A DNA stretch of 64,000 nucleotides. Source: Treponemataceae bacterium. Its GTDB lineage: Bacteria; Spirochaetota; Spirochaetia; Treponematales; Rectinemataceae. Within the stretch, counting starts at the first letter, position 1. Every line of letters starts with the position of its first letter. This document shows, in pieces, positions 36,021 through 64,000 of this stretch. Location: assembly GCA_963678065.2 (NCBI GenBank), contig CAXXVZ010000003.1:2240001-2304000 (forward strand), written 5' to 3'. Under the pieces are notes generated by a model, which had not been told where the DNA came from, did not search any database, and saw only the letters and a program-made list of their open reading frames with translations. The position numbers and the translations under genes are program-made.

Positions 36021-36046
36021 AAGCATATAGAGGTTGAGAGTGACTT

Positions 36047-37256: not shown

Positions 37257-37270
37257 ACAAGGACATTGCG

Positions 37271-40202: not shown

Positions 40203-40254
40203 TGTCCCTTGATGGAAAATGTAATTCATTGTTGAAACAGTCAGGAGATCTACG

Positions 40255-44475: not shown

Positions 44476-44525
44476 TAGAATAGACATTGCTGGCCTCCAA
44501 ACACCATTCTCTTCCTGCGTCGTCC

Positions 44526-44623
44526 ACTTAGCATACGCTTAACCGGCACGGCATTCATTGACACGCGTTTTGGTGCATACAAACCGTGGCAATAGCCATG
44601 CCCGGTTGAAGTGTTTACTTGGC
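44526..44623 (-). repeat. attC-like site 2 (98 bp)
   Basis: Minus strand AAACAC-TTCAACCGGGCATGGC...GCCGTGCCGGTTAA-GCGTAT-GCTAAGT; long imperfect hairpin with one extra base in the L'' arm. Confidence 0.6.
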
Positions 44624-46151: not shown

Positions 46152-48533
46152 TCATCGAAGTCGATCAAGCGCTTCGCCGAGTTTCTGGAGGCGTAGAGGC
46201 CGATCGTGCGCGAAGCGTGCAATCCTCTCCCTGATGTGGAATGGGGTGAGGTGGGCTTCATCGAGCACCTCATCGAGAGTGCCTCCCGTTCGCCAGCGGT
46301 TATCCCAGTCAGCCGACACTGAATACTCCTCACTGGTCTTTGAAAACAGCCAGTCGTGCATGAGCCATCGTGCCTGTGTGGTTATCACCATGGAATCGAT
46401 GCGGTCCGCATCGGAAAGAACAGATTCTCGGTATTGCGGCGACTGAAGCGAGAACAGTTGGTAACTGACCGCGCATACAACCTTTATACCGAGTTCATCC
46501 ATTTCCGGCAGAAGGGAGAGTATCGCATTCATGGCGCTCGTGCCCTGGATTATTACAGTTCCATTGTGTGGCCGTCCTGGAGCCGGAGACCGTACTACAT
46601 AGGCCCCCCGCGCTGCTTCAGTATGTGAGGGCATTCCCAATTTCTGCCGGTCGGGAATTTCTATGGCAGGACGTGTCAAGTGCAGTGCCACGATCGGAGC
46701 CTTCTGGCGAAAGGCCGCTGCCAGGACTACCGGGACCTCGTTGAACTCCCATGGATGGAGATTGATGACCTGCCCTTCGGGGAAAAGCTGCGTGACGCCG
46801 GGCTCGAATATTCCGAAATGAGTCCTGCTGTCATCGGCTGTTTCCGGTCCGGAGTGGCTCGCCACCCAAAGCACTTTCCCGATTTTCAGATCGCAATCTT
46901 GCGCCAACTGACTGAATAATCTGAATGGGCCGTAGAGGAGGTAGGAAAAAGAACCGTACGTCGATGTGGCGCCCCAAAATCCTTCGAATTCTTCAGCCGG
47001 GGTTCTGGCGATATTGCACGAGGCGATGCCGGCCATGATGCCGGCGTTTGCGAACTCAGTGATTTCCTGTGGCAGGAGCACGCCTTCTTCCGTGCCGGAA
47101 CGCTCATACCATCCATATCCGCGGAAATTGCCCTGAGGCCCGCCGAAACCGGCGATGTTGGTCGATCCCGCCAGATCGGCCGAGCTTGCAAGGAACAAGG
47201 GTTGGTCATAATTGGAGGCTCCAAAGCTGTTCACCCAGGCACCCCAACGCCCCAATGCCTCGCGATTGGCTCTCTTTTCGCCCGGCCTCGCGAAGAGCTC
47301 GGCGGGATAATTCGAAAAATCGTACAGTCTTCCGTCAAGGAATGGATTCCCGCGTTTTCCAAGTCTGTAGGTGGGGATTCTTTCCGGTACGCTCTCGCCG
47401 ATCGCCAGGAGGCGTTTGGCCAGTCTGTCGACGAGCGCCTCGTCTTCCCGGAGGACTTCGATCACTGTTTCCAGATTGGCCTTGAACTCGGCGCTCACGG
47501 CTTCTGGGCCGACTGGAGGCTCCCCTCCGAAATTGATGAAACGGGCTCCATATTTCCTGACGAACTCAGCCTTTGTCCGCCAGAAAATCTCGCTGTTCAT
47601 CGCATGCGGAGTTCCGTGCGAAGCATTGTCGTACTTCAGGTATCCGCGTCCTTTTCTCGTCTTGACCCAGATCGCTGTCGGCAGTTTCTTCGGGTTTTCC
47701 GCGCGCATCGTTTCCAGTAGCAGGTCGCATATCACATTGTAGTCTTCGCCTGCCTCCGTTCCAGCGACGCGCCACCCATGCGAACCAAACCAGTCTGTCG
47801 GCGATCCGTAGACCACGCTGCTCACCGGGTGATCATCTATCCCGAAATCGTTCCAATCGATGAGGAAAACCAGGTTGTTCAGCGCCAGTCCCCAGGCAGA
47901 GTTCATCGTTTCATGTGTCGCTCCGGGGGTGAGTCCCCCCTCTCCTTCCAGGACAAAGACTTTCACTTCATCGGCTCCGGCGCGCTTCAGCGCCACAGCG
48001 AGTCCCGCCGCAACGGGACTCCCATGACCTGATGCGCCGGTATTTGCCTTCACGAACAGCGATCGGCCCTGCATTTCCGGATGACCAGACAATCCTCCCC
48101 TTCTTCTGAAGCCGAGAAGATGTTCCACATACAAGGCGCGATGATCGGCATCAGCGATTTCATATCGCGGATCTCCGGTTCTGGAAAACTTGAGTCGCAT
48201 CGCTTCGTTCAAGACCGCCAAAGTGCAATAGACAAGAGGTGCGGTATGCCCGGCTCCCAGGACAAAACGGTCCGAAAATTGCTTCGTGAGATCACGTATA
48301 TCCCATCTCATGACACCACTGAGAAGTGTAGCGAGAAACAGCGGAAGTTTCGAACGGGATCCCCCGGGATGCCCGCTCTGTCGATAATTCAGGACGACAT
48401 CCATGAGCTGGTCGATTATATCTCTCAGCTTTTCCCATCCGGCGAAGTCGGGAAAAATCTCGCCAGCAAGTTCCCAATTTTTCGAGTCGCTTTCTTTCGT
48501 GTTAATTTCAGCACCTCGCTTTTCAATCACCAT
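46152..48533 (-). CDS. Transketolase-family ThDP enzyme (long, atypical)
   Basis: SGHPGGS, DRFVLGAGH, GHP, GEG...DWN ThDP motif, SADL, H.GP..ADDSRTH. Confidence 0.85.
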   Translation of the reverse strand: MVIEKRGAEINTKESDSKNWELAGEIFPDFAGWEKLRDIIDQLMDVVLNYRQSGHPGGSRSKLPLFLATLLSGVMRWDIRDLTKQFSDRFVLGAGHTAPLVYCTLAVLNEAMRLKFSRTGDPRYEIADADHRALYVEHLLGFRRRGGLSGHPEMQGRSLFVKANTGASGHGSPVAAGLAVALKRAGADEVKVFVLEGEGGLTPGATHETMNSAWGLALNNLVFLIDWNDFGIDDHPVSSVVYGSPTDWFGSHGWRVAGTEAGEDYNVICDLLLETMRAENPKKLPTAIWVKTRKGRGYLKYDNASHGTPHAMNSEIFWRTKAEFVRKYGARFINFGGEPPVGPEAVSAEFKANLETVIEVLREDEALVDRLAKRLLAIGESVPERIPTYRLGKRGNPFLDGRLYDFSNYPAELFARPGEKRANREALGRWGAWVNSFGASNYDQPLFLASSADLAGSTNIAGFGGPQGNFRGYGWYERSGTEEGVLLPQEITEFANAGIMAGIASCNIARTPAEEFEGFWGATSTYGSFSYLLYGPFRLFSQLAQDCDLKIGKVLWVASHSGPETADDSRTHFGIFEPGVTQLFPEGQVINLHPWEFNEVPVVLAAAFRQKAPIVALHLTRPAIEIPDRQKLGMPSHTEAARGAYVVRSPAPGRPHNGTVIIQGTSAMNAILSLLPEMDELGIKVVCAVSYQLFSLQSPQYRESVLSDADRIDSMVITTQARWLMHDWLFSKTSEEYSVSADWDNRWRTGGTLDEVLDEAHLTPFHIRERIARFAHDRPLRLQKLGEALDRLR

Positions 48534-49593
48534 CGTAGGTCAAAATCACTTTGATGGCTTCACGGCCGAGCATCAGTTTGAATCCTTCTTCCCACTTCGA
48601 TAGCGGGAGTCTGTGGGTGATCAACGACTTGGCGTCCAGCATGCCCCTTTTAAGAAGGTTGATGCTGTTCTTCCATGACACCGTGTTGTAGGCCATATGT
48701 CCCGTCAGCGTTACGCCCTTCATGGAAAGGTCGTTGATGGAGAATTCGAGAGGGGCGTATCCCATGCCAACCCTGACGATCTGGCCATTCGTCCTGATGA
48801 TTCCGAGCGACTGCTTCAGGACTGACGGGGCTCCCGCGCAATCGATGATCAGGGGAATTTCGTTCTTGCCGGCGATTTCTAGAATTCTCGCGGATGTGTC
48901 ATCCTCATCCCCGACGATCAGATGCGTCGCACCAAGTTTCTCCGCGACCTTGAAACGGACTTGTTTGTCCACACCCAACCCGACGAGTATGATATTGGCC
49001 GCCCCCATCAGTTTCGCCATCTGCAACGAAAACAAACCCAATGGTCCGGCGCCGAAGATGACCACATTCTCGCCTGGAAGCAACTGTGAACGCTGAGCCA
49101 CAGCCATGTATGCGTTGCTGATGGGATCGAGCAGCGCCGCTTCCTCGAACGAGATGTTATCGGGAATCCTGAACAAACAGTTCTTGTAGACTCGCATGAC
49201 CTGGCCCGGTATCTTCACGTATTTGGTGAATCCGCCGTCCATTCCCAAGCCTAGAGATTTCTTGTCCGGACACGTAAGGAAATTGCCGACGGAACAGGCG
49301 TAGCATTTCCCGCAGACGTATCCTGTGTTGTCGGATACGACCCTGTCGCCGATTTTCCAGTCGACAACATTCTTGCCGGCTTTGACTACGACGCCTGAAA
49401 ATTCGTGTCCCCATACCGAGAGTAGATCATTCGACCCGTTCTGGACCCCGAAATGCTTCAGGTCCGCTCCGCAGATCGCGGATGCCTTCACTTCCAGAAG
49501 CAGATCTTCGTCGCCGACCGCAGGTTCCGGGACGTCGATGTATTTGTATCCACCGAATAATGCAGGTGTGCCGTATCGTGCGAGAGCTTTCAC
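48523..49593 (-). CDS. ydjL: Zinc-binding dehydrogenase, YdjL homologue
   Basis: MKALARYG..FGGYK.IDVP, AICGAD.KH, GHEF closely match E. coli YdjL as recalled. Confidence 0.82.
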   Translation of the reverse strand: MKALARYGTPALFGGYKYIDVPEPAVGDEDLLLEVKASAICGADLKHFGVQNGSNDLLSVWGHEFSGVVVKAGKNVVDWKIGDRVVSDNTGYVCGKCYACSVGNFLTCPDKKSLGLGMDGGFTKYVKIPGQVMRVYKNCLFRIPDNISFEEAALLDPISNAYMAVAQRSQLLPGENVVIFGAGPLGLFSLQMAKLMGAANIILVGLGVDKQVRFKVAEKLGATHLIVGDEDDTSARILEIAGKNEIPLIIDCAGAPSVLKQSLGIIRTNGQIVRVGMGYAPLEFSINDLSMKGVTLTGHMAYNTVSWKNSINLLKRGMLDAKSLITHRLPLSKWEEGFKLMLGREAIKVILTYDGD

Positions 49594-49700
49594 AACAACC
49601 TCCTCCGATATAATCTATGACGCCATCCCTATCGGATGCGCCTTTGCCGTATCTTGCAAACACCATCAGAGCGGCAGTTTCACGAAATCAGGACGAGGCA

Positions 49701-50564
49701 TCAAATCCCCGCAGCCCGGAAAACTGTCCCAAGGCAGGCTGCAGCATCCGCCACCGCCTGATCTAACGGCATGCTGGCGTATCGGTCCGTCGTCGGCCGC
49801 ATCGGTTCGACTATCACTGGTCCATCGTATCCACCACGGCACAGTTCCTTCAGTACCGACACGGAATCGATGATACCGTTCTCCATCGGCATCCCACGCT
49901 CGCTGTCGATCTGATCTTCCCGCGAATACTTCGGGCAGGCATCGTTGATATGAACATTCACTATTCTGCCGGTGTTGCGGGCGGCCAGATAGAGATCGTC
50001 CATCCTCCCCCCGGAACAGTACCAGTGGATGGTATCGAAGACGAATCCGATCCGCCTGTCGACGTAGTCCGCCAGGGCCATTATTCCCCCCAGAGAATGG
50101 ATAAATGGATTCCTGAAACTCGCGCGTACGGTTCTCGGTCCCATGAATTCGAGACCGTATTGTATTCCGCTGTCATCGAGGATTGCATACACCTTGCGCA
50201 TCCGCGCCGCGTGCCACCCGAAGTTTTCTTCGTATCCTCTTTCATCGTTCCCTGGCCAAATGTGGTTGTAAGCCCTTGTACAACCGGCGGCCTTTGCCCT
50301 CTGAGCCCATTGCGCAAGGAGCCGAAGCGCATCGTTGAAGGCATCATCAGGAACCTTGTACAAGTCGCAGGGTGTCATGATCAGGCCCCACCTCATGCCG
50401 AGAGCGGCCAGTCGCGCGCCCGCCTCCTTCGCCCCCTCGATCGTGTCGAAGGCTCCAGCTGGCATCTCTATCCCCTCGAAGCCGTTTTTTGCGGCCGCGA
50501 CAAGCAGATCCTCGAAGCCATACTTCGTAAGTCCCATCGTCCTTGGATTCAAGTTCATGTACAT
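49701..50564 (-). CDS. Sugar phosphate isomerase/epimerase (xylose isomerase-like TIM barrel)
   Basis: GFEGIE, GLEF, D..HW, VHIND, R.MP..G.ID, GYDG...VE; start adjusted to ATG 50564. Confidence 0.85.
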   Translation of the reverse strand: MYMNLNPRTMGLTKYGFEDLLVAAAKNGFEGIEMPAGAFDTIEGAKEAGARLAALGMRWGLIMTPCDLYKVPDDAFNDALRLLAQWAQRAKAAGCTRAYNHIWPGNDERGYEENFGWHAARMRKVYAILDDSGIQYGLEFMGPRTVRASFRNPFIHSLGGIMALADYVDRRIGFVFDTIHWYCSGGRMDDLYLAARNTGRIVNVHINDACPKYSREDQIDSERGMPMENGIIDSVSVLKELCRGGYDGPVIVEPMRPTTDRYASMPLDQAVADAAACLGTVFRAAGI

Positions 50565-50596
50565 TCGACGATCCCCTCTGGTTACTGTCTGCCGAC

Positions 50597-51235
50597 TTAT
50601 GTCACGACCTTGATGGCAAGTATCCGCTCGATCTCCGACTGGGGAATATCGACCATTGGTCCGAGTTGTTTCGCGATCGATGCAATCCGCGCGAATTTCT
50701 CCGCGGATTCGATTCTCTGGAACGCCTTTTCCAGCGTCGAAGCTACGGCAAGAATGCCATGATTTCCCAGCAACACGAGGTTGCGATCCTTTAACAGACC
50801 TTTCGCTTGATCGAGAATGTCGTCCGAACCCGGTTTGCCATAAGGTGCCACAGGAATATCCTTGAAATGGAACAGGATTTCCGGATGGCATTTGTAATCG
50901 ATCGGTATGTGGCAAATCGCATACGCAGTGAGATATACGGGATGGCAGTGTATTACAGCGCATATATCGTCGCGCACCTGGTAGGCTCCCTTATGCATCA
51001 GCAGTTCCGACGAAGCCTTCTTGGTTCCGGAAATCTGGACTCCTTCCTGATCGAATACTACGATCAATTCCTCCGTGAGTTCGCTCTTCCTCGTGCGTGC
51101 GGGCGTGATATACAGTAACCCGTCTTTTTTCGTCGAAAGGTTGCCCTCGAAGGTGTTCACCAACTGGGCTTCTTCCATCTTTTTGGCAACCCTTATAATT
51201 TCCTTGATGACTTCCGTATCTATCCGTGCGTTCAC
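50597..51235 (-). CDS. Class II aldolase/adducin family protein (FucA-like)
   Basis: EGNLS, ITP, SSELLMH, HCHP, NHG. Confidence 0.88.
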   Translation of the reverse strand: MNARIDTEVIKEIIRVAKKMEEAQLVNTFEGNLSTKKDGLLYITPARTRKSELTEELIVVFDQEGVQISGTKKASSELLMHKGAYQVRDDICAVIHCHPVYLTAYAICHIPIDYKCHPEILFHFKDIPVAPYGKPGSDDILDQAKGLLKDRNLVLLGNHGILAVASTLEKAFQRIESAEKFARIASIAKQLGPMVDIPQSEIERILAIKVVT

Positions 51236-51285
51236 TGTGGTCCTCCTGGTACCTGCCCTGGCCGGGCTCTATTCACACATCTGCC

Positions 51286-52770
51286 TCATGAATGGAACAG
51301 CCCCAGATTCTTCATTGATTCCAGCGCATCATTCCATCTGCTGTTCTGTTTACCTGTAAACTCGCGGACATCACAGGAATGCGATGCGACTTCCCTTATT
51401 TCGTCGGGGGAAGAGAGCTCCCCCGAAGCGTACAATTGCGTCAGTACATTCCCCATGGATGAAGCGATGTGGCTTCCACTCAAGACAGTCATCCCGAGCG
51501 CATCCGCAATCATCTGCAAGAGTGCGGAGTTCATGGTCCCGCCGCCTATCGCGACCAGCCCCCTATAGTTCACCTTCCCGGTTATCTTCTTCAGACACTC
51601 CAGACTCCACTTGATCTGCAGCGCGAAGCTCTCAAACAAACAACGGATAATTTCTCCCTTCGCGCTCACATCAGCTTGCCCCGTCTTCCTGCAATATTCA
51701 CGTATGGTCAACACCATATCGTCAGAATCGTGTCGGAAAACCGGATCATTGACATTCAGGTACGTCGAATTGACCGCATTTTCCGAAGCAAGAATATTCA
51801 GGTCCTGCTGACGAACTACCTCGCCATGCCTTTTCCACACCTCGATGCATTTGTTCACTATCCAGAAACCGGGGAAGTCTTTGCACAGCGAATTGGTACC
51901 GAAAGCGCCGGCGACATTCTTGAAATGGAATGTGTACCCTTCGTCGTTCACTATCGGCCCATCGGTCCGAGTACCGAATATTATGGATGTTCCGAGGCTC
52001 GCGAACAGCATCGAGTCGTCGAGAAAGGGAGCTGCAAGCAGAGCCGACTCGGTATCATGAGCGAACACATGTACGATTGCAGTTCCCTTGCCGCCGACTC
52101 CTCCGATCTCCGGGTCGTCGATCACTCCCGAAACCGTACCCCCCTCTACGAGCGGGGGAAACAGTCTCCGGGGAATGGACAGTCTCTCCATCAGTCGATG
52201 ATTCCAACCTGAATTCCCGATCTCCAGGAGACTGCTCACCGACGCTATTGTCTTTTCCGCCGTCTTCTCACCGGAAAAGAAATAGGTCAACAGATTTGCC
52301 AACGGAAGGAAGGTGACTCCTTCTTTCAGGGCAGGACTGTCCTCTCGGACATCGCGATACAGTTGCGCCAGGACACGCGACCTTACGGGGTAGATTCCTG
52401 TTTCCCGGTAAAGCTCGTCCATCGGCATTATCTCCGACATCTTCTCGAGTATTCCGCTCGTTCCATCATCCCTGTAGTGATATGGCATACCGATCAAACG
52501 GCCCCTTCCGTCGAGCACCCCGTAGCCGTTGCCGTATGTATCGATACCGAGCGATCTACACCCCCCCGAGTTGCATGTCAGACTTGCGATACTCTTCCTG
52601 ATCCCTTTGTAAATACCCAGGACATCTATATAGAGCGAGCCGAGCATCTTTATGGGCTCATCGCCGAACTCGATGGTTCCCATGGTAACTATTTTGTTGC
52701 CGTCAAACTGCGCCGCAAGAATTTTTACGCTTCCGGCCCCGACGTCGACAGCAACGGTGATATCGCCCAT
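51286..52770 (-). CDS. Rhamnulokinase-like FGGY kinase
   Basis: AVDVGAGS, GIDTYG, YHYRD, HDTESA, IGGG. Confidence 0.85.
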   Translation of the reverse strand: MGDITVAVDVGAGSVKILAAQFDGNKIVTMGTIEFGDEPIKMLGSLYIDVLGIYKGIRKSIASLTCNSGGCRSLGIDTYGNGYGVLDGRGRLIGMPYHYRDDGTSGILEKMSEIMPMDELYRETGIYPVRSRVLAQLYRDVREDSPALKEGVTFLPLANLLTYFFSGEKTAEKTIASVSSLLEIGNSGWNHRLMERLSIPRRLFPPLVEGGTVSGVIDDPEIGGVGGKGTAIVHVFAHDTESALLAAPFLDDSMLFASLGTSIIFGTRTDGPIVNDEGYTFHFKNVAGAFGTNSLCKDFPGFWIVNKCIEVWKRHGEVVRQQDLNILASENAVNSTYLNVNDPVFRHDSDDMVLTIREYCRKTGQADVSAKGEIIRCLFESFALQIKWSLECLKKITGKVNYRGLVAIGGGTMNSALLQMIADALGMTVLSGSHIASSMGNVLTQLYASGELSSPDEIREVASHSCDVREFTGKQNSRWNDALESMKNLGLFHS

Positions 52771-52804
52771 GCCTGTTCATCCAACCGATGGTACATTGCG
52801 ACGT

Positions 52805-53791
52805 TCACACGTCGATCGCCTCGGCTGCCTCCCTCATTGCGCGCACGTCGGTATCGGATAGCTCGAGGTCCGCCGCTTTTGCGTTTTCCGCGAGCTGATC
52901 GATGGTAGTCGCCCCGCTAAGTACATTGATGTTGTCGCCCTGGGCCAGTATCCATGCGATTGCCAAGTCCGGGATCGAACAATGATACTTTCCGCACAGA
53001 CCTGCCCAGCCCCGCATCATCGCCAAGGCTTTACGCATATTCTCCCGCTCGAACCACCGCTTGCCATTCTGGGCAGAACCTTTCGGCGGAACATAATCAT
53101 CGCCGATGGTTCCGGTCAGGAGTCCCTGCTCAAGCGGAGAATATGCCTGGAAAGTAATGGACCGCCTTCTGCATGCGGGCAGGATCTCACGCTCCACTTT
53201 CCGATCGAGGATACTGTACTTGCACTGGACAATATCGAGTTCGCCGTATTTCAAATACTCCGCGATATGCTCCGATGTCACGTTGGCAGCCCCGATTGCC
53301 CTGATCAGCCCTTCATCCTTCAGCTCGTTCAGTGCTTCCATCGTTTTCGATATAGGTGTGAAGAAGGGTTCGACGCTTTGCCAGTGAGTCATGTATACGT
53401 CGATGAAATCCGTCCCGAGTCGTTCGAGGCTCTCCTTGATCTCATCTTTTATCGATTCTTTCGAGAGATTCTTGTAGAGCTGCACATCACCGACTTTGTT
53501 GAAGAGGCTCCCGACACCTTTCCATGTGATGCCGCATTTCGTTATGAGCACGACGTCGTCTCTCTTGATCCTGGCAAAGGCAGCACCGACTACTTTTTCA
53601 CTGTTGCCGAAATTGTAGGCCGGAGCTGTATCGACGAGGTTGATCCCCAGAGCTTTGCAGCCCGCGATGGTCCTTATGCTTTCTTCGAGATTCGCGTCCC
53701 CGCCCCAGGCCGGTCCTCCCCCGATCGCCCAGGTTCCCAACCCGATCCTGGAAATTTCCATCTGCGTCTTTCCGAGTTTCATTGTATTCAT
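52805..53791 (-). CDS. ydjG: Aldo/keto reductase, YdjG homologue
   Basis: LGTWAIGGGPAW, GSLFNKVGD.QLYKNLS, YMTHWQSV.PFFTPI. Confidence 0.88.
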   Translation of the reverse strand: MNTMKLGKTQMEISRIGLGTWAIGGGPAWGGDANLEESIRTIAGCKALGINLVDTAPAYNFGNSEKVVGAAFARIKRDDVVLITKCGITWKGVGSLFNKVGDVQLYKNLSKESIKDEIKESLERLGTDFIDVYMTHWQSVEPFFTPISKTMEALNELKDEGLIRAIGAANVTSEHIAEYLKYGELDIVQCKYSILDRKVEREILPACRRRSITFQAYSPLEQGLLTGTIGDDYVPPKGSAQNGKRWFERENMRKALAMMRGWAGLCGKYHCSIPDLAIAWILAQGDNINVLSGATTIDQLAENAKAADLELSDTDVRAMREAAEAIDV

Positions 53792-53860
53792 CGAGGATTC
53801 CTCCAATCCGGTTTTCCGTAATCGATGCCTTTCCGCTTCACATCGTGCTCCGGAGACTCG

Positions 53861-54703
53861 TCACGCATTGGCCTTGCCGTCGCTCCCGAACAGGTGAATT
53901 TTCTCCATTGCCCGTCCTTTGATTGCCTTCCTGATCTCTTGCTGCAGAGCGAGGTAATTCAGTTTCCCCGCGTTATCCCCGATCGCGATCATCGCGGCCT
54001 GACCGAGTTCGGTATGGATGTTGATCTTTGTGCAGCCCAGCGAAATCGCTTTCCGCACATCCGCATCGCCGATTCCGGAAGCGCCATGCAGGACGAGGGG
54101 CACGTCGATGGCATTCCTGACCCTTTCCAGTATCGCGAAATCTATCTTCGGCTCCGAGCTGTACACGCCGTGCATGTTGCCTATCGCGACGGCGAGCGCA
54201 TCAGCACCCGTACCATCGATGAACTCCTTCGCCTGGTCCGGATCAGTGTATCCGTAACTTGCAAGAGCGTCCTCGTATTTCGTCTCCGCCCCCACATGGC
54301 CGAGCTCCGCCTCTACCGGGATTCCCCTGTGCTGGAATGCGTCGACGACTTCCTTCGTGAGCCTGATATTGATGTCGAGAGGATTCGCCGAGGCATCGAT
54401 CATCACGGATGTGAATCCAAGGTCAACTGCATGCTGGACGATTCCGAAATTTCTCCCGTGGTCCCAGTGGACTGCGGCCGGCACTGTGGCGGCTCGCGCC
54501 ATGGATATCATCATCGAAGCGAAATGGTCGATGTCAGTGTTTTTAACGAATCCTGTTCCGAACGAGAGAATGACGGGAGAAGCGCATTCCTCCGCCGCAT
54601 CCCTCGCTCCTTCGAGCATCTCCACGTTCCACACATTGAAGTGAGGAACTGCGTAGCGGCCTTTTTGCGCCTTGAGGAGCATTTCCTTCATAGATACGAG
54701 CAT
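53861..54703 (-). CDS. ydjI: Class II ketose-phosphate aldolase, YdjI homologue
   Basis: HFNVWN.EML, SFGTGFV, HWDHGR, AELGHVG.ET.YE.AL, KINIHTEL. Confidence 0.88.
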   Translation of the reverse strand: MLVSMKEMLLKAQKGRYAVPHFNVWNVEMLEGARDAAEECASPVILSFGTGFVKNTDIDHFASMMISMARAATVPAAVHWDHGRNFGIVQHAVDLGFTSVMIDASANPLDINIRLTKEVVDAFQHRGIPVEAELGHVGAETKYEDALASYGYTDPDQAKEFIDGTGADALAVAIGNMHGVYSSEPKIDFAILERVRNAIDVPLVLHGASGIGDADVRKAISLGCTKINIHTELGQAAMIAIGDNAGKLNYLALQQEIRKAIKGRAMEKIHLFGSDGKANA

Positions 54704-54740
54704 TCTCGCCTCCCTATGGCAGAACCCTGGACTACTTGCA

Positions 54741-55778: not shown

Positions 55779-55829
55779 GACTTTGAGGTTCCTCCCGATC
55801 GGTCCCGGATTGGATCACAATAGATTCTT

Positions 55830-56801
55830 TCAATGTGTCAGGAACTCGCGACAGTCCTCTCTCTTTCGCATGACCTCGAGTACCTGTGCCTTGTTCCGCA
55901 CACCGTTCGTGGCTCCCGACGCACCGACAGAAATCGACGCGACAGCGTTTGCGAATCGGCCGCATTCAACGATATCCGCTCCATCCAGGATTGCGGTTAT
56001 GAAGCCCGCGACAAAATTGTCGCCCGCTCCGATAGTGTCGACCGGCTCTTCATTCCTGTATGCCGGGACGATCAGGCGGAGATCGGCGTTCTTCACGAAG
56101 CAGCCAAGCTTTCCATTCTTGATGACAACGTTCTTGACGCCGGATCCCAGGAGCGCATCGGCGATTTCGTCGATATCCGTCAGTCCGGTCAAGTCCGAGG
56201 CTTCATCGTAGTTCGGAAAGAAATAATCGAGGTAGGCGAGCGCTTCTCGAATGTCAGCCAAACGCTTGCCGTCCCTGCTCTTCATCATATCCGCGCAGAT
56301 AATCAGTTTATGTTTTCTCGCTTCCCCGAACACAGTCATCAATCCATCGCGATCCAGTCTGGGGTTGATGAATATACTCGCGATATCGAGCAGCCGTGCG
56401 TCCTTGATGCGCGCGAGGTCGATATCCGCGGCACTGAACTTGAACGTGCTGCTGGACCGGCTGACGACGAATGTCCGTTCTCCGTCAGCGCGTACGAGCC
56501 CCACGCTGAGCGGTGTGTCGACATTTCTGTCGATGGCGACGCTGGAGATGTCGATCCCGTTTTCGTCACAATGGGAAAGAATGTATTTTCCCATCATATC
56601 ATCGCCCAGCAGAGTGATGAGGGCGACTCTCACTCCAAGCCTTGTCGCGATGACCGATACATTTGTGGCGCTTCCGCCTATGGTCGGGAATATTCTGTCT
56701 ATCGGGTACGAATCAATGCCGAATACGCTTGAATCCATAGGCTTCAAGGGAACGTCCAGCGCTGAATTCCCTATGCAGATCACATCGACTTTCTCGCCCA
56801 T
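55830..56801 (-). CDS. ydjH: PfkB-family sugar kinase, YdjH homologue
   Basis: DSYP.DRI, GERTFV, ASIF..P.LD, DTIGAGDNF. Confidence 0.85.
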   Translation of the reverse strand: MGEKVDVICIGNSALDVPLKPMDSSVFGIDSYPIDRIFPTIGGSATNVSVIATRLGVRVALITLLGDDMMGKYILSHCDENGIDISSVAIDRNVDTPLSVGLVRADGERTFVVSRSSSTFKFSAADIDLARIKDARLLDIASIFINPRLDRDGLMTVFGEARKHKLIICADMMKSRDGKRLADIREALAYLDYFFPNYDEASDLTGLTDIDEIADALLGSGVKNVVIKNGKLGCFVKNADLRLIVPAYRNEEPVDTIGAGDNFVAGFITAILDGADIVECGRFANAVASISVGASGATNGVRNKAQVLEVMRKREDCREFLTH

Positions 56802-56839
56802 CTACGAAAACCTCCGTCATTGGCAAGGGGGAATGCGAA

Positions 56840-57667
56840 TCAAAACCCCAGCAATCCGAGCTTGTGCAATACAATTTCCTCGACCGCTTTCTTCGGCCTG
56901 GCGAGCAACTCCGTGTAGACATAATTATCCGGATTCTCGTTCAAGGACTCGCGCAGGGAACGGTTGAAGGCAATCCTGAGCGCCGTGCCGATGTTTACTT
57001 TGCAGACGTTTGTATTCCGCATCCTCACAATATCGGCATCCACGAGCCCGGTAGATCCGTGTATGACCAAGGGGATCGGAACGGCTTCCCCGATTCTTGA
57101 GAGGAGATCGAAGTCGATATGCGATGCCTGACGCTCCATCCTGTGAAGCGTCCCGACTGCGACGGCGACAGCGTCTATTCCCGTATCGCGTACGAATCGC
57201 GCAGTCTCTTCCGGATCTGAAAGCACGGCTTTGTGGGATGATGTACCAGAGTATGCGACTGAGCCTATCTCAGCCTCCACACTCACCCCTTTCTCCTTGG
57301 CCCTGGATACGATGTCGCGCGTCACCTCCACGTTCTGGTCGTACGGAAACTGGGAAGCATCTATCATCACGGAGGAGAAACCGGAATCGATCGCCTTTTG
57401 TATGTCCTCGACCCTGGTGGCATGGTCAAGATGAACACACACCGGTACGCTCGACCTTCTTGCCATTTCGCAGAGAAGCAATCCCCAGAGTCCGATATCC
57501 ATGAACGCCGTGGCCATGGACCCGATCTGGACTATCACAGGCGCTCCCAGTTTCTCCGCTGCGGTGATGATCGGCTGTGCATCGGCGTACGTCGTTGCAT
57601 TGAAAGCGCCTACGGCGGCGTCCCGGCTCATATATTGAGGCAGTAGTTTCGCGAGTGTGACCAGCAT
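56840..57667 (-). CDS. Second class II fructose/tagatose-bisphosphate aldolase-family protein
   Basis: GAFN, HLDH, SVMIDAS, EAEIG, GTLH, HGSTG, KVNIGT. Confidence 0.87.
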   Translation of the reverse strand: MLVTLAKLLPQYMSRDAAVGAFNATTYADAQPIITAAEKLGAPVIVQIGSMATAFMDIGLWGLLLCEMARRSSVPVCVHLDHATRVEDIQKAIDSGFSSVMIDASQFPYDQNVEVTRDIVSRAKEKGVSVEAEIGSVAYSGTSSHKAVLSDPEETARFVRDTGIDAVAVAVGTLHRMERQASHIDFDLLSRIGEAVPIPLVIHGSTGLVDADIVRMRNTNVCKVNIGTALRIAFNRSLRESLNENPDNYVYTELLARPKKAVEEIVLHKLGLLGF

Positions 57668-57754
57668 CTTCCGCTCCTATCCGGCATTCTCAACGATCCG
57701 TGATTCCAGGATCCCATCGGGGTGGACCTGTTCACGCACGCGACGACCATCCTC

Positions 57755-58429
57755 TCATAAATGGTCTCCAGTCAGATTCATCAATCCATTCAGGATGTTT
57801 TTCTCAACCGCGTCGATAAAAAGATCCTTATTATTGCTGATCAAGGCATCGATAATCGCTTTATGCTCCTCGAGACTTTTCTGGAGACGCCCTTTATTTT
57901 TGCATGATTCCAGTCCAAGAAGGTACGATTTATCCATTACATCATCGATGACATGGAGAAATTGTGAATTCTTCCTTATTGAGAGCAGATACTTGTGAAA
58001 GGAAAGGTCTTCTTTCATGAATCTTTTGCTGTCGGCCTTCTCGACGTACTCTTTCTGCTTTTCATAGGAGATCTTCAGGTTGGCGATGTCTTTTTCGGAA
58101 ACATAATCGAAGGCTCTCTTTGCGGAATATGTTTCTACCGCGGCTCTCAGTTCGTAAACCTCACGCGCGTCGATTATGGAGACTGAATTGATGACGACGC
58201 CCTGTTTCGGTATTATCGTCACCAATCTATCCCGTTCCAGCCTTTGACATGCGTTGGCCAACGGCGTCCTTGAGATATTGAGCTCCCTGGACATGGCAGC
58301 TATGCTGATGACCTCTCCCTGCCTGAGCTCGCCGCTTACGATCTTCTCCTTGAGAGTCACATAAGCGTCCTTCGTCAAACTGCTCTCTTCCTTCATGCCG
58401 ATCTGTTTGTCTTCCATTTCTCCGCTCAT
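57755..58429 (-). CDS. GntR-family regulator (FCD domain)
   Basis: AY..LKEKI, ISRTP, YELR, D.SFH, EEH. Confidence 0.9.
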   Translation of the reverse strand: MSGEMEDKQIGMKEESSLTKDAYVTLKEKIVSGELRQGEVISIAAMSRELNISRTPLANACQRLERDRLVTIIPKQGVVINSVSIIDAREVYELRAAVETYSAKRAFDYVSEKDIANLKISYEKQKEYVEKADSKRFMKEDLSFHKYLLSIRKNSQFLHVIDDVMDKSYLLGLESCKNKGRLQKSLEEHKAIIDALISNNKDLFIDAVEKNILNGLMNLTGDHL

Positions 58430-58521
58430 TTATTCATACGTAGAGACTCTCTGCCGATCGGGAACTCTACGAGCAAACGCTCGAACCATCAAGAATTATA
58501 ACCGCAATGACATTCCTGGTC

Positions 58522-59802
58522 TCAAAGCCGGGATATCTCCAGCGTGGCAAGCAGGAATTTCTCGATATCGAGAATATCGTTGCAGTGGAGAGGGGATACA
58601 CGGATGGCTCCGTCCAGACCGAATGAATTGAGCATTCTCTTCGAGTACAGACTGGTCGCGAGCCTGTCATATACGATGATGTTCCTTCTCTCGTACTCTC
58701 TGACAGCCTTTGTATAGCCGATATTCTTGAATCCGATCGCCATGATGAAATCCCTGATGGTAAGGTCGGGATTATCCAGGAATACAAGAACATTGTCCAT
58801 TTTCCTGAGTCCTGGCACCCCACCCGAACCGTCGAGCATCCTGGCCATGAGCGCCCGCTCGTGCAGCTTGATCCTCTCCATACCCGCGACGAACAATTCC
58901 CTTCGGGACTTCGAATCGGTAAAATGGCCGCCGACCCACGCAACATAGTTAACGATCTCCGTGATGACCGCGAACTGGGATGGGGCCGGGCTGCCCAAGG
59001 ACCAATCCTCGATGTTTTTTGCAGAAAGCTTATGATGAGGCAGTCTGGAAAGGCGCTCGGAGACATAGCCGATTCCGGAACCACGGCAGCCATAGAACTT
59101 GTATGGTGCGAAATTGATGCCGTCGACGGGCATTTTTTCCAAGTCGAGGATCCCGTGAGGAGCGTGTTGGACTGCGTCGCAGATAATGTACAAATCCGGC
59201 TTGACCGACCGGGCTTCCCGTACGATGGACTCCATGTCATAGATCGCGCCGGTTATGTTGGAGGCGTACATCACGCTGAGCAATACGGTGTCCTTGTCGA
59301 TCAGCTTGACGATCGAGTCGACGTCGACTCCGCCTGTATTGCGATTGCTCTGCGCCACCCGTAGCTCGCGACCCGTCTTCTGGGCATAGTATTCCATACA
59401 GTCATATGCCGACGGATGCTCCAGGACCGAAGTTACCATATTTTTGCCTGGCACGTTTTCCGCCACCGCGCGTACCATGTCGAACATGGTTTGGGACGCG
59501 GTAAGGTGGGTGAGGATGCTGCCGCCGGCGGGGGCATTGAAAATCAACCTCGTATCGTCCGTGCCATCGTCCTGAATTTTCTGGAGCTTCAGCGCCATCT
59601 TGTGGACGCGCTCCGGACAGTCAGGAACGGAGTCGACCTCGATCGCCCTCTCCACGGCCTTTTTGAGCCTGAAAGCCCCGCCTGCGTTGTCGAACATCAG
59701 TCTCTCGCCGATATCCGGATCCCTGTCCACATAAAGAAATTTGTCCTTGATCTCCCGCTGCAGGGTTTCGGGGAAGAGAATGCCTTCTGGATGGTTGGCC
59801 AT
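58522..59802 (-). CDS. Class V PLP-dependent enzyme (SufS-like fold)
   Basis: FDNAGG, LEHPS, ASNITG, DAVQ, PYKFYG, IRVS..H.N; start adjusted to ATG 59802. Confidence 0.85.
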   Translation of the reverse strand: MANHPEGILFPETLQREIKDKFLYVDRDPDIGERLMFDNAGGAFRLKKAVERAIEVDSVPDCPERVHKMALKLQKIQDDGTDDTRLIFNAPAGGSILTHLTASQTMFDMVRAVAENVPGKNMVTSVLEHPSAYDCMEYYAQKTGRELRVAQSNRNTGGVDVDSIVKLIDKDTVLLSVMYASNITGAIYDMESIVREARSVKPDLYIICDAVQHAPHGILDLEKMPVDGINFAPYKFYGCRGSGIGYVSERLSRLPHHKLSAKNIEDWSLGSPAPSQFAVITEIVNYVAWVGGHFTDSKSRRELFVAGMERIKLHERALMARMLDGSGGVPGLRKMDNVLVFLDNPDLTIRDFIMAIGFKNIGYTKAVREYERRNIIVYDRLATSLYSKRMLNSFGLDGAIRVSPLHCNDILDIEKFLLATLEISRL

Positions 59803-59833
59803 ATCGGATGCCTCCTTGGTTGATTTTACTAGC

Positions 59834-60841
59834 TCAAACAATGACTTCCCCCTCGCGGAGCAGGAATCTTCCGTCGACTTCGATGCTTGGTTTCTTGATA
59901 ACCATATCGAGATGGTATGCGCTCTCGATCGTCCCGAAGAAGCCGGTATTGCTTCCGAACCCGAAATGCATGGTCCCTGCACAACCTTCGTCTTCGAGCA
60001 TGCGCCCGTTGAGTTCGCACTTCGTGTTAAGCCCGATTCCGATTTCCCCGACGCAATATGCTTTTTCGTCGTTGAAATCCTTGAGGATCCTCGCGAGAGT
60101 TCGAGCCTGCGGCCCGCCGCTTATGTCGACGATTACGCTATTGTGTATCATCAGTTTTATCTCGTCGTGTATGAGGCCAAGCTGGGGATGGGGGATGCTT
60201 CCGTCGACGAATACGACGCCATTCGCCGTGCCTTCGATGGCGCCGATGGCGCACTCGATATCCGGCGGCGAAGAAGACGATCCCGGCACGAGACTTCGCC
60301 CGTACTGCGGCACGGTGGGTCTTCCGGCTATGTTCGCGGAAAACTCTGTTCCCCTTTCGGTAGCGACATGGATTCTCTGGCCCACCATCGCCTTTGACAT
60401 GCGCTCGCAGACCTTCCCCTCTTCGATGAAATCGGCGTACATTCCGCCTTTGCGAAGCATCGATGCGGTATAGTCCACCATGTTGACGAACCGGGCTCCT
60501 CCGGCCACCGCTTCTCTCCTCGCGCGGCTATGGAACAGTGAAAACTTCGTCGCTCCGAATATTACATCGGCCTTGGCCATAGCCTCGGCGACCACTCTGT
60601 TGGGATCTTGTCCGTGCATCGTCCGCTCATCCATCATGACGATCGACTTGTTGGGGAAATCACTCGCGACCGCCCACATCGTTTCAGCCACCTCGAGACT
60701 CGTGGGGTCGGTGACAATAAGGATATGTTCGTCCTTTCTGCAATTCGAACAGGTGGTCAACAGCACACGACAAGCCTGATGGCCCTCGCTATCCTGCTCT
60801 CCAACGAGTTTGCTGACGCTGCCCTCCGGATTTATCTGCAC
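59834..60841 (-). CDS. M29-like aminopeptidase / NicX-like metalloenzyme
   Basis: T..GT, DGSI, GEIGIGLN, LEDE, HFGFG.N, HLD. Confidence 0.75.
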   Translation of the reverse strand: MQINPEGSVSKLVGEQDSEGHQACRVLLTTCSNCRKDEHILIVTDPTSLEVAETMWAVASDFPNKSIVMMDERTMHGQDPNRVVAEAMAKADVIFGATKFSLFHSRARREAVAGGARFVNMVDYTASMLRKGGMYADFIEEGKVCERMSKAMVGQRIHVATERGTEFSANIAGRPTVPQYGRSLVPGSSSSPPDIECAIGAIEGTANGVVFVDGSIPHPQLGLIHDEIKLMIHNSVIVDISGGPQARTLARILKDFNDEKAYCVGEIGIGLNTKCELNGRMLEDEGCAGTMHFGFGSNTGFFGTIESAYHLDMVIKKPSIEVDGRFLLREGEVIV

Positions 60842-60845
60842 GGAT

Positions 60846-61550
60846 TTATCCTCCCAAATAGGCTTTTTTCACTTCTTCATTTTCGAGAAGCTCGGATCCG
60901 GTCCCTTCGATCACAGTCTCCCCGTTCTGGATCACATATGCGTAATCGCAGATCGCAAGCGTATCAACAGCATTCTGCTCAACCAGTACGACGGTCACTC
61001 CGCTCTTGCTGATCGTTTTGACAAACTCAAATATCTCGGCGACAAGTATAGGCATCAAGCCGAGAGAGGGCTCGTCGAGGATCAACAACTTGGGATTCGA
61101 CATCAATCCTCTTGCGATCGCCACCATCTGTTGTTCGCCCCCGGACAGGGTATCGGCCTGCTGCCGCAGCCTCTCCTTTACCCTCGGGAACAGAGTGAAG
61201 ACCTGTTCGAGTCGATCGCTGACAGTCTTCTTGTCCCTCGTCAAGTAAGCGCCCATCAGAAGGTTGTCTTTAACGGAAAGCTTTCCGAACAGATGGCGTC
61301 CTTCGGGGACCATGGATATGCCCAGTTCAGCTAGTTTGTAGGTAGGCATGCCCAGGATTGACTTCCCCTCGTAGAGAATGTCACCGCTCATGGCCTTTAC
61401 CGAACCTGTCACAGCCTTCAGGGTCGTTGTCTTCCCTGCCCCGTTGGATCCCAGAATTGCTATGATCTTTCCCTTGTCGACTTTGAACGAAACATCGTGG
61501 ACTACGGGCACACCACCGTATCCGGTTTTTAGGTTCTTCACTTCGAGCAT
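60846..61550 (-). CDS. Branched-chain amino acid-type ABC ATPase (LivF-like)
   Basis: GSNGAGKTT, VPEGR, LSGGEQQM, DEPSLGL, EQN. Confidence 0.93.
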   Translation of the reverse strand: MLEVKNLKTGYGGVPVVHDVSFKVDKGKIIAILGSNGAGKTTTLKAVTGSVKAMSGDILYEGKSILGMPTYKLAELGISMVPEGRHLFGKLSVKDNLLMGAYLTRDKKTVSDRLEQVFTLFPRVKERLRQQADTLSGGEQQMVAIARGLMSNPKLLILDEPSLGLMPILVAEIFEFVKTISKSGVTVVLVEQNAVDTLAICDYAYVIQNGETVIEGTGSELLENEEVKKAYLGG

Positions 61551-62266
61551 GTATTGCCCCTCAGGTATGCATTGATCACTGCCTCATTGCTGCAGACTTC
61601 AGTCGGCGTCCCCTCAAACAAGACCTTCCCCGATGTCAGCACTACTACGCGATTCGATACCTTCATCACTACATCCATGTTGTGCTCGATGGTAAGGATC
61701 GTGATCCCGGAATCGTTGATCCGTCTGATGAACTCCACAGAATCTTTGCGCTCCGTAGCCGTGAGCCCGGCCATGGTCTCATCGAGCAACAGGAGCTTTG
61801 GCTCCGTCGCCAATGCCCTGGCGATTTCCAGCCGTTTTTTCTGACCGACATTCAGTTTGCCCGCGCTTACTTCCCTCAGGTGAGTTATTTGGCTCTGCTC
61901 CATGATCGCATTCGCCAATGCCTCCGCCTTCTCCATGTCGCCATGGTGGCAGAGCGCCCCGACGAGCACGTTCTCGAATACCGTCAATTCATTGATCGAT
62001 TGCGGAATCTGGAATGTGCGGCCTATTCCCAGCTTGCATATCTGAAACGACTTCTTTCCGGAGATTTCCTGGCCGTCGAAAACTATCGTGCCCCTCGACA
62101 GTGGGTGGACGCCGCTGATCGAGTTGAACAATGTCGTCTTGCCGGCCCCGTTCGGCCCCACGATCCCTACTATCTCGCCTTCTGTGACGTCGAAAGTGAT
62201 GGCTTCGTTGGCGATCAGTCCGCCGAATTTTTTCGTGGCGTCATTGACCTCGAGAATCTTGTTCAT
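61538..62266 (-). CDS. Branched-chain amino acid-type ABC ATPase (LivG-like)
   Basis: FGGLIAN, GPNGAGKTT, RTFQ, LEIARAL, EHNM; start adjusted to ATG 62266. Confidence 0.92.
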   Translation of the reverse strand: MNKILEVNDATKKFGGLIANEAITFDVTEGEIVGIVGPNGAGKTTLFNSISGVHPLSRGTIVFDGQEISGKKSFQICKLGIGRTFQIPQSINELTVFENVLVGALCHHGDMEKAEALANAIMEQSQITHLREVSAGKLNVGQKKRLEIARALATEPKLLLLDETMAGLTATERKDSVEFIRRINDSGITILTIEHNMDVVMKVSNRVVVLTSGKVLFEGTPTEVCSNEAVINAYLRGNTCSK

Positions 62267-63255
62267 GCTGCCGTCCTTTCTCCGGCGCGTGGTTTCCCTG
62301 TCTTCTTCTTGATGAGGGAGAGCACGCCGTTGGGGAGGAACAATACAATGAAGATCACCAGGATGCCGTACAGGACCATGTCGAAACCACCGTACTTGCC
62401 GAGCTTCGCTCTTGAGTATTCGGATATGAACGTCAGTATGATGGCCCCTACGATGGGTCCTATGACCGTGCCCAATCCGCCCATGACAACGACCAATACA
62501 ATCATCATCGATACCTTCAGTGTCATCAGCATGGAGGGATCGATATACAGTATGAACTGCGCGTAGAGGCTCCCACCAAGGCTCACGATCCCTGCGCTCA
62601 GCATGTATGCGAGCATTTTGTACTTCGGCGTATCGATGCCCATGCTCTGAGCCGCCATCTCGTTGCCCTTGATCGCACGCAGGTAGTAACAAAATTTGGA
62701 TTTATCGAGATACTTCGTGAGCAGAAGCACGATGAGCGCGAAGCACAGGTATACATAATAGTATTGCAGATTGTTCTGGAACTGCATCGCGAATACTCGA
62801 TTGAGGTTCTTGTTGAAGAAGTAGACTCCGGTCGCCCCTCCGAGGGCTTTGGTGTTGAGGAATATTATTCGTGCGCATTCCGAGACCGCCATTGTGGCTA
62901 TCGCAAAAATATGGTCGCGCAAGCGCAGCAAGGGTTTTCCGATCAGGAACGCGATGATGACCGATATGAGCACGCCGATCCACATGGATATCCACGGAGT
63001 CAACTGGAACCATTGCATGGAGAGCGCGCAGGAATATGCCCCGAGCCCGAAGAAAAGCGAATGACCGTTGGAAATCTGCCCCGCGTAGCCGCCGATAAAG
63101 TTCCATCCCAGTCCCAGGATAGTCCATATGACCATCATCGTCATGACATGACGGGGAAAATTGCCGCTCAGCACCAAGGGGAGCGCGATGGCGGCCAGAA
63201 TAACCAGACCGATCAGAAGTACCTGGTTCTTTGTTCCGAAAATCGTTTTCCTCAT
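62263..63255 (-). CDS. Branched-chain amino acid-type ABC permease (LivM-like)
   Basis: GYAGQIS.GH..FFG.GAY, GGLGT..GP. Confidence 0.9.
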   Translation of the reverse strand: MRKTIFGTKNQVLLIGLVILAAIALPLVLSGNFPRHVMTMMVIWTILGLGWNFIGGYAGQISNGHSLFFGLGAYSCALSMQWFQLTPWISMWIGVLISVIIAFLIGKPLLRLRDHIFAIATMAVSECARIIFLNTKALGGATGVYFFNKNLNRVFAMQFQNNLQYYYVYLCFALIVLLLTKYLDKSKFCYYLRAIKGNEMAAQSMGIDTPKYKMLAYMLSAGIVSLGGSLYAQFILYIDPSMLMTLKVSMMIVLVVVMGGLGTVIGPIVGAIILTFISEYSRAKLGKYGGFDMVLYGILVIFIVLFLPNGVLSLIKKKTGKPRAGERTAA

Positions 63256-63259
63256 TCCA

Positions 63260-64000
63260 TCACCTCCCGAAAATCCCTTTTGGCCTGAAGGAAACGACGA
63301 CGATGAAAGCGACGCATACGCCGAGGTATTTGAAAGCGGTACTCAGGTAGACACCCGTGAAAGTATCGACGATCCCCATTATCAAGCCCCCGAGGAATGC
63401 GCCGGTGATGCTGCCGAAGCCGCCCATCGAAACCACGATAAAACCGAAAAGTTGAAAATTCGCTCCCACGCCGGGAAAAATGTAGTAGAAATACGTTAGC
63501 GCGCATCCCGCGGCTCCGGCGATCGCGCTCGCGAGCGAAAATGCGAGGGCGTACGAGCGCTCCGTATTGATTCCGACCAGCGCGGCGGCTTCCTTGTCCA
63601 TCGCCGTCGCCTTTATCGCCTTGCCTGTCCTGGTGTTGCCGAGGAAATAAAACATGCAGCCGGCTATGACCATGGCGGCAACGAACGGAACAAGCTTCTG
63701 CTTCGAGACCATGAGCCATCCCAGGTTGATCGTGCCTTTGAACGCGACGTTTCTTATCGTCTTGAATTCTCCACCCAGAAGAAGAAGTACCAGGTTTATC
63801 AACACCATGCTCAAGGCGAATGTGATCAATCGCTGCGACAGTACGGGACCTTTGAGAGCCTTGACGATTATCGTCTTGTAGATCACGTATCCGAACAGGA
63901 ACATCACGACCGCGCATATCGGAAGGGCGACGAGCGGATCCATCTTGAAGAATTTGTTGAGGTAGAAAGACAGGAACATTCCGATCATCAGGAACTCGCC
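63260..64000 (-). CDS. Branched-chain amino acid-type ABC permease (LivH-like), 5' end outside window
   Basis: TRTGKAIKA..D.EAA.LVGI, GGFGS..GA..GG, RPKGIFG. Confidence 0.9.
   Translation of the reverse strand, partial: GEFLMIGMFLSFYLNKFFKMDPLVALPICAVVMFLFGYVIYKTIIVKALKGPVLSQRLITFALSMVLINLVLLLLGGEFKTIRNVAFKGTINLGWLMVSKQKLVPFVAAMVIAGCMFYFLGNTRTGKAIKATAMDKEAAALVGINTERSYALAFSLASAIAGAAGCALTYFYYIFPGVGANFQLFGFIVVSMGGFGSITGAFLGGLIMGIVDTFTGVYLSTAFKYLGVCVAFIVVVSFRPKGIFGR

Follow-up and report, generated by a model that had tools for sequence, protein, structure and literature searches.

A ydj gene cluster joined to a predicted lactam-degrading module in a spirochete, with ascorbalamic acid as candidate substrate

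The ydj cluster, which is common in Escherichia coli (PMC9602453), encodes enzymes that are reported to prefer long chains (PMC9602453) and whose best described in vitro substrate is L-glycero-L-galacto-octuluronate, an 8-carbon ketose acid given as having no natural abundance (PMC9602453, PMC11194214). Two pyridoxal 5'-phosphate (PLP) enzymes also bear on the locus described here, namely UstD, which is reported to build gamma-hydroxy amino acids and to give alanine upon protonation (PMC11976203), and Fgm3, described as a retro-aldolase acting on gamma-hydroxy-arginine (bioRxiv 2023.03.21.533663). We analysed a stretch of 64,000 nucleotides (the window) from a Treponemataceae bacterium (assembly GCA_963678065.2, contig CAXXVZ010000003.1, positions 2,240,001 to 2,304,000). 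It carries, at 46152-64000, 17 genes of an 18-gene run whose remaining member, livK, lies just past the window edge. The run joins ydj genes to a LIV-type transporter, an M29-like protein, a class V PLP enzyme and a GntR regulator. As a novel form of the ydj cluster, it leads to a specific and testable hypothesis on the substrate. From gene content, orthology, recurrence, motifs and atom balance, we propose with a probability of about one half that the operon serves to break down ascorbalamic acid or one of its close stereoisomers or reduced forms.

Coupling of ydj genes to a LIV, M29 and PLP module

YdjG, YdjH, YdjI, YdjJ and YdjL homologues cluster together in the run, and their identities to the E. 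coli K-12 proteins (Table 1) mark the five as true ydj orthologues. YdjI and YdjH match PDB entries 6ofu (E=2e-109) and 3h49 (E=1e-98), respectively, and YdjG lies barely above the NF049922 cut-off (550.2 versus 550). The major facilitator superfamily (MFS) transporters YdjE and YdjK and the DeoR regulator YdjF are not in the run; LIV and GntR genes stand in their place, and the run is therefore a variant of the ydj cluster. An initial annotation of this DNA had named the five ydj genes correctly, but its rhamnulokinase-like, FucA-like and transketolase labels proved loose, as each of these genes falls under its NCBIfam cut-off. The transketolase-like protein scores 91-112 bits against cut-offs of 488-788 for its top three models and does not qualify as a canonical transketolase; its gene also comes after ydjL in another genome (G803), and the family is widespread. 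YdjI matched three of 401 genomes in its own phylum, too few for a genome-wide statistic.

The same annotation had proposed looking for this coupling in other neighbourhoods, and M29 and PLP genes were indeed found with ydj genes in a second spirochete, Christensenellales, Clostridium and metagenomes. Among the best 80 genome loci of at least 469 relatives of the PLP enzyme, 11 carried an M29-like gene; a ydj orthologue was present at three of these 11 loci versus none of the 69 that lacked M29. A Rectinemataceae locus (L008) holds the whole operon, including the transketolase-like gene. A Christensenellales locus (L009) has a different order (ydjG, ydjF, FGGY, FucA-like, TIM barrel, LIV, M29, PLP, gntR, ydjH), and at a Clostridium locus (L044) M29 and PLP are accompanied by gntR and by genes for a YdjE orthologue and a 2-hydroxyacid dehydrogenase. 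M29 and PLP genes occurred together at 17 of 37 metagenomic loci, four of which (L092, L093, L094 and L116) had a ydj orthologue; L092 and L093 are probably one organism. As a proxy only, contig sizes were compared: of 70 contigs of 5 kb or longer that encode a YdjH homologue, 16 were identical in size to a contig bearing a PLP or M29 homologue (shifted control: mean 0.36, maximum 4). These 16 include one pair with discordant source labels and one pair assigned to Anaerolineaceae on both proteins.

Two separate modules might merely share a locus, with LIV, M29, PLP and GntR serving small hydroxylated pyroglutamates and the ydj set serving an unrelated long sugar acid. In most of the genomes examined only one of the two halves is present, L116 has ydjH and the second aldolase divergent from LIV-M29-PLP, and the plp-gntR spacer of the window contains a perfect TATAAT. 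We regard this explanation as unlikely. The link recurs with gene order shuffled among L008, L009 and L116, in at least two phyla and with the ydj-linked M29 proteins split over two M29 clades, and YdjE and a rare SDF subfamily are common to both halves. Furthermore, no separate sugar transporter is encoded in the window run, and the TATAAT is absent from the nearest relative, L008. The occurrence of each half alone in other genomes also suggests that the nitrogen-handling module (N-module) acts after the kinase/aldolase step, not before it as the initial annotation had proposed.

The best NCBIfam model for the PLP enzyme is TIGR01976, at 121 bits versus a cut-off of 352. It lacks the hallmarks of a SufS/IscS desulfurase: it has no catalytic Cys, the corresponding loop reads RLATSLYSKR, the Lys motif is PYK and so has no His ahead of the Lys, and its scores are far under the cut-offs. 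An alignment revealed DNAGG, YK and SKR motifs common to the enzyme and Fgm3, a pattern of the UstD/Fgm3 type. Y234, K235, S387 and R389 are invariant in its family, and the motif Tyr is a candidate counterpart of the published Y225, with numbering off by 4. The fold scores (VIA Z) were 40.0 for Rv3778c, 37.5 for SufS and 36.3 for UstD, which is thus in the top three. We predict from these motifs that the enzyme is a Cbeta-Cgamma retro-aldolase; an aminotransferase role found no support. The least probable of the explanations considered is that a C-S lyase of this family and an M29 peptidase release a sugar from a cysteine S-conjugate. The fold is nearest to the desulfurase/C-S lyase group and a TauE exporter adjoins one PLP homologue (L014). 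Beta-elimination would, however, yield pyruvate and not alanine and hydroxypyruvate, and the enzyme resembles Fgm3 in DNAGG, in SKR and in the Tyr that precedes its PLP-binding Lys. No sulfur-handling genes were found among the annotated M29 and PLP neighbours either, with one PALP-family gene each in L010 and L125 as the sole possible exceptions.

Members of the wider PLP family (61-66% identity) occur without M29 at L019-L087 (Variovorax, Collimonas, Clostridium and others), several of them adjoining a LysR regulator and an amino-acid transporter. These may be stand-alone retro-aldolases for 4-hydroxy-4-methylglutamate or a similar compound, mislabelled as cysteine desulfurase.

The M29-like protein matches the fold of NicX (TM-score 0.83), followed by PepS, AmpT and AmpS. 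It has no Pfam match at 1e-3, with Peptidase_M29 reaching 15.3 bits against a gathering threshold of 27; this model is matched at 0.01 by 18 of 20 family members. E196, E266, E283-D284-E285, H292, H310 and D312 are invariant in the family (numbering +14). By comparison with the ligands of AmpS, the protein has an M29 fold with Glu/His/Asp dimetal ligands. It lacks the iron motif reported for NicX, HX52HXD (PMC3831237), having Glu at the first His position. Homologues at 52-54% identity adjoin D-glutamate cyclase and NRAMP-family genes (L105, L106, L110), and others in this range adjoin threonine-aldolase-fold enzymes and tartronate semialdehyde reductase. The NRAMP-family protein YcsG/PxpT is described as serving the uptake of pyroglutamate and as required for its use (PMC13274462). 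We infer that the M29-like enzyme is a lactamase for substituted pyroglutamates; a peptidase role, as initially annotated, is not supported. M29 matched two of 400 Clostridia genomes, too few for a genome-wide statistic.

At L105:3268-6442 and at L106, a D-glutamate cyclase (L105 only), an M29 homologue and an NRAMP-type transporter are consecutive, forming a candidate ATP-independent pyroglutamate cassette. At L107:1727-9352 and L110:251-4454, an M29 homologue accompanies a threonine-aldolase-fold enzyme, and L107 adds LIV genes and tartronate semialdehyde reductase; a route for 3-hydroxy- or 3,4-dihydroxy-pyroglutamate is possible there. In a record labelled fungal (P0036), a single 668-aa chain combines M29 and PLP; the record is probably a bacterial contaminant in which two genes were called as one.

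The top PDB match of LivK is 8WCH (E=3e-69; next match E=2e-13), which is SAR11_0655 with bound L-pyroglutamate (PMC11485210). Against 8WCH, the LivK of a ydj-free M29 and PLP locus (L097) scores 372 bits versus 237 bits for the window LivK. By this homology, the LIV transporter is of the pyroglutamate-binding class. Such a binding protein, together with several ketose kinases and aldolases, would also suit an N-linked Amadori or opine conjugate (e.g., deoxyfructosyl-pyroglutamate) that would be cleaved after uptake and passed on to the kinases. This is very improbable: a domain search of the 17 window genes of the run found neither the SIS-domain deglycase of Amadori (Frl/Fra) catabolism nor a flavin amine oxidase, a PLP enzyme needs a primary amine, and the alanine and hydroxypyruvate genes described below would be unexplained. 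The initial expectation of a nitrogen-containing conjugate thus stands in that a sugar-amino acid hybrid is likely, but not in its Amadori, opine or amino-sugar-acid forms. The evidence points to a carbon-linked lactam.

Genes that would handle the products follow the M29 and PLP module at several loci: alanine dehydrogenase in L104 and L112, 2-hydroxyacid dehydrogenase and glycerate kinase in L062, L092/L093 and L094, and aminotransferase and serine dehydratase in L060. If the products are alanine and hydroxypyruvate, the substrate of the PLP enzyme would therefore be 4-hydroxy-4-(hydroxymethyl)glutamate. Queries for glycerate kinase, alanine dehydrogenase and serine dehydratase all failed to match the window genome at E 1e-30, so that hydroxypyruvate may be consumed there by the product of the transketolase-like gene. 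These neighbours also bear on a reverse order, or another C-linked polyol lactam, in which M29 and PLP would act first to free alanine and leave the sugar enzymes a keto-sugar acid, which in the case of ascorbalamate would be 2,3-diketogulonate. M29 and PLP do come first in gene order, and alanine would be released whichever order applies. Nevertheless, the glycerate kinase and serine dehydratase genes of ydj-free loci fit a 3-carbon and not a 6-carbon product, E. coli runs ydj without M29, and the Ydj enzymes prefer long chains, making this order improbable.

Transporters are shared between the two halves. The MFS protein adjoining clostridial M29 and PLP genes is 51% identical to YdjE versus 43% to YdjK. 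The SDF protein after ydjF in G184 and G259 is 35-44% identical to SDFs adjoining M29 and PLP, versus 22-26% to other SDFs in the loci. An SDF from an M29 and PLP locus matched three of 399 Clostridia genomes, and two of these matches fall within ydj clusters. Apart from the central genome, only the two genomes concerned have a YdjH match, and they may be related to each other. The shared transporters would fit one metabolite exiting ydj-only cells and entering M29 and PLP cells.

A proposed route through ascorbalamic acid

In the proposed pathway, LivKHMGF would import the lactam. YdjL would then reduce the side-chain ketone and YdjJ oxidise the carbon that adjoins the CH2OH end; the resulting 2-ketose would have a main chain of 8 carbons ending in a carboxylate. 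YdjH would phosphorylate C1, and YdjI would split off dihydroxyacetone phosphate (DHAP) and 4-formyl-4-hydroxy-pyroglutamate, which YdjG would reduce to the hydroxymethyl compound C6H9NO5. The M29-like enzyme would open this lactam, the PLP enzyme would cut Cbeta-Cgamma to give L-alanine and hydroxypyruvate, and in the window organism the transketolase-like enzyme would consume the hydroxypyruvate. Epimers may take a parallel route made up of the TIM barrel, the FGGY kinase, the FucA-like enzyme and the second aldolase. Two clostridial ydj clusters have an extra ribulose-phosphate 3-epimerase between ydjL and ydjK (L135:9154-9855, L136:5024-5731), as well as an SDF symporter replacing ydjE. 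This epimerase and the extra kinase/aldolase set of the window suggest a need to deal with epimers. Where ydj occurs alone, the DHAP would be kept and the C6 lactam excreted, to be eaten by organisms with M29 and PLP alone.

We take ascorbalamic acid (HMDB0029944) to be a 4-hydroxy-pyroglutamate formed by ring closure after alanine is joined through carbon to C2 of ascorbate; carbons C3-C6 of the ascorbate would remain as a side chain, with a ketone at C3 followed by a triol. On this assumed structure, C3 reduction and C5 oxidation would give a 2-ketose with an 8-carbon chain and a terminal carboxylate, the length of the octuluronate substrate. The configurations, again as we assume them, would make C4 of ascorbate the 3S centre needed by the YdjI aldolase class and the reduced chain the glucitol pattern that is oxidised by sorbitol-type dehydrogenases. 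The C6 lactam that YdjG would make from the YdjI aldehyde, added to DHAP, gives C9H13NO8, the formula tabulated for ascorbalamic acid (PMC3976912, PMC10563677). The atom balance closes: once the redox and hydrolysis steps are counted, C9H13NO8 less DHAP leaves alanine and hydroxypyruvate.

Several points weigh against this proposal. The structure of ascorbalamic acid and all of the stereochemical matching are assumptions, and the L-amino-acid centre would have the opposite hand to the C7 hydroxyl of the octuluronate. The literature mentions of ascorbalamic acid that we read are metabolomics mass annotations only, giving neither structure nor catabolism, and no paper linking ydj, M29 or the PLP family to it was found in a search whose coverage stopped short of subscription journals and bioRxiv supplements. 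In fold comparison, SufS scores 1.2 Z above UstD and the top 50 Foldseek matches are nearly all desulfurases; the LivK loops have partly diverged from 8WCH; and the third clostridial SDF match stands alone. ATP-free opening of pyroglutamate is given as unfavourable, with an equilibrium constant of about 0.035 (PMC13274462), so that lactam opening would need a pull from the PLP step. In these searches, M29 and PLP genes were not found in the ydj-bearing genomes of E. coli K-12, G184, G259, G609 and G735. Eight of the 11 genome loci and 13 of the 17 metagenomic loci with M29 and PLP have no ydj orthologue, many of the contigs being short. Finally, no YdjI, YdjJ or second-aldolase orthologues were found in G401, a genome that may be incomplete and that may use the extra kinase/aldolase set instead of YdjI and YdjJ.

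More tentatively than for the window operon, we suggest that ascorbalamic acid is the natural ydj substrate in E. coli too. There, DHAP would be kept and 4-hydroxy-4-(hydroxymethyl)pyroglutamate exported through YdjE, and anaerobes with the ATP-independent M29-family lactamase and the PLP retro-aldolase would finish it to alanine and hydroxypyruvate. The locus supplies a missing downstream half of ydj, and with it a named candidate molecule and an atom-balanced route. The predicted excreted marker is C6H9NO5, with [M-H]- at 174.041. If the proposal is true, it would show that microbes break down an ascorbate conjugate of plants, and would reveal a vitamin C-derived cross-feeding chain parallel to that of sulfoquinovose and dihydroxypropanesulfonate (DHPS). 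It would also give functions to two widespread unannotated families, an ATP-free NicX-fold lactamase and a PLP retro-aldolase of bacteria that at present carries the wrong label of cysteine desulfurase.

Locus layout, signals and composition

All of the named open reading frames lie on the minus strand with intergenic gaps of -13 to 139 bp (Table 1), bearing out the initial description of a tight, co-oriented run from livH to the transketolase-like gene. A near-consensus promoter-like TTGACA-16-TATACT is located upstream of livK. A GC-rich terminator-like hairpin lies 3' of a serC-like gene, between it and livK, and sets this gene apart, so we excluded it from the operon. Neither gntR junction has a terminator-like fold (z 1.18 and 0.12), and promoter and terminator counts inside the operon are at chance level. 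Stable hairpins are present after livK (L001:2112-2250, z -3.4) and before ydjL (window 49594-49700, z -2.5), neither of them terminator-like. An RNA run (X20) covered eight of 30 bins with short contigs only and is uninformative for transcription. An assembly artefact was considered and rejected, as an independent contig from a separate study bridges 49675-59088, covering both gntR junctions, and relatives carry the same coupling.

Table 1. Genes of the run, with window positions unless stated otherwise.
Feature	Position	Strand	Evidence
livK	L001:2251-3522 (window-equivalent 64251-65522), outside window	-	423-aa solute-binding protein, pyroglutamate-binder class; top PDB match 8WCH
livH permease	63260..64000, start at window-equivalent 64111 outside window	-	PF02653
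livM permease	62263..63255	-	PF02653
livG ATPase	61538..62266	-	domain/family profile matches
livF ATPase	60846..61550	-	domain/family profile matches
M29/NicX-fold metallohydrolase, predicted lactamase for substituted pyroglutamate	59834..60841	-	fold and invariant residues
class V PLP enzyme without desulfurase Cys, predicted Cbeta-Cgamma retro-aldolase	58522..59802	-	TIGR01976 best NCBIfam, below cut-off
GntR/FCD regulator	57755..58429	-	orthologues travel with M29 and PLP
second class II ketose-phosphate aldolase	56840..57667	-	32% to YdjI; orthologues in L008 and L116
YdjH PfkB kinase	55830..56801	-	50% to E. coli K-12 YdjH; 3h49
YdjJ Zn dehydrogenase	54741..55778	-	65% to E. coli YdjJ
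YdjI class II aldolase	53861..54703	-	62% to E. coli K-12 YdjI; 6ofu
YdjG aldo-keto reductase	52805..53791	-	61% to E. coli K-12; NF049922
FGGY kinase, rhamnulokinase-like	51286..52770	-	below NCBIfam cut-off
FucA-like class II aldolase	50597..51235	-	below NCBIfam cut-off
AP_endonuc_2 TIM-barrel isomerase/epimerase	49701..50558	-	sole PDB match uncharacterised
YdjL Zn dehydrogenase	48523..49593	-	52% to E. coli YdjL
divergent transketolase-like protein, 793 aa, possible hydroxypyruvate sink	46152..48533	-	PF00456 E=2e-18

The region has a GC content of about 53-55% versus about 59% over the contig, and the PLP gene is present in two of 61 related genomes, a count too low for a genome-wide statistic. 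By these two features, the operon region looks acquired. Transposases flank the operon, with a DDE_3 protein downstream (window 43358-44527) and a transposase/ATPase pair, presumably IS21-like, upstream (L001:11836-14120), an arrangement that fits a mobile region. Upstream of the serC-like gene (L001:5583-11622) are amidohydrolase-like, tripartite transporter-like and GntR-like genes, labelled from reading the sequences, and a protein with an opine-dehydrogenase domain. A second low-GC catabolic island at window 28188-41697 has AraC, sugar ABC transporter, epoxide-hydrolase-like, DHDPS-family, URO-D-like, lyxose isomerase, galactarate dehydratase-like, NAD dehydrogenase and acid-sugar kinase (SBD_N/NBD_C) genes. 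Plasmid searches gave no useful context.

Comparison with known systems

The nearest described system is the E. coli K-12 cluster ydjLKJIHG-ydjF-ydjE, which has the same YdjG, YdjH, YdjI, YdjJ and YdjL orthologues at 50-65% identity. Here, LIV takes the place of YdjE and YdjK, and GntR that of YdjF; M29-like and PLP genes, a second kinase/aldolase set, the TIM barrel and the transketolase-like gene are added. The binding protein is of the same class as that of the SAR11_0655 pyroglutamate ABC transporter with PxpABC, but its binding loops have diverged and the operon has no ATP-dependent oxoprolinase. The M29-like protein shares its fold and HxD metal motif with NicX/Hpo and AmpS/AmpT/PepS, and the substrate of NicX is also a cyclic amide. 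It differs from NicX in having Glu in place of the first His of HX52HXD and in a context that suggests lactam hydrolysis, and it is shorter than the AmpS-type peptidases (335 versus about 410 aa). The PLP enzyme has the fold of Fgm3 and UstD and likewise lacks the desulfurase Cys; a Tyr also precedes its PLP-binding Lys, and it has N- and C-terminal motifs in common with Fgm3. It is only 18% identical to UstD, and is bacterial, predicted to be catabolic and predicted to cleave a tertiary alcohol.

In the sulfoquinovose Embden-Meyerhof-Parnas pathway of E. coli, the Yih enzymes provide a PfkB kinase, a DHAP-releasing aldolase and a reductase, and the excreted fragment is eaten by other bacteria. 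The proposed route would follow the same logic of kinase, DHAP aldolase, reductase and excreted fragment. It would differ in leaving an amino-acid lactam and not a sulfonate, in using a class II aldolase, and in having two Zn dehydrogenases that set up the ketose.

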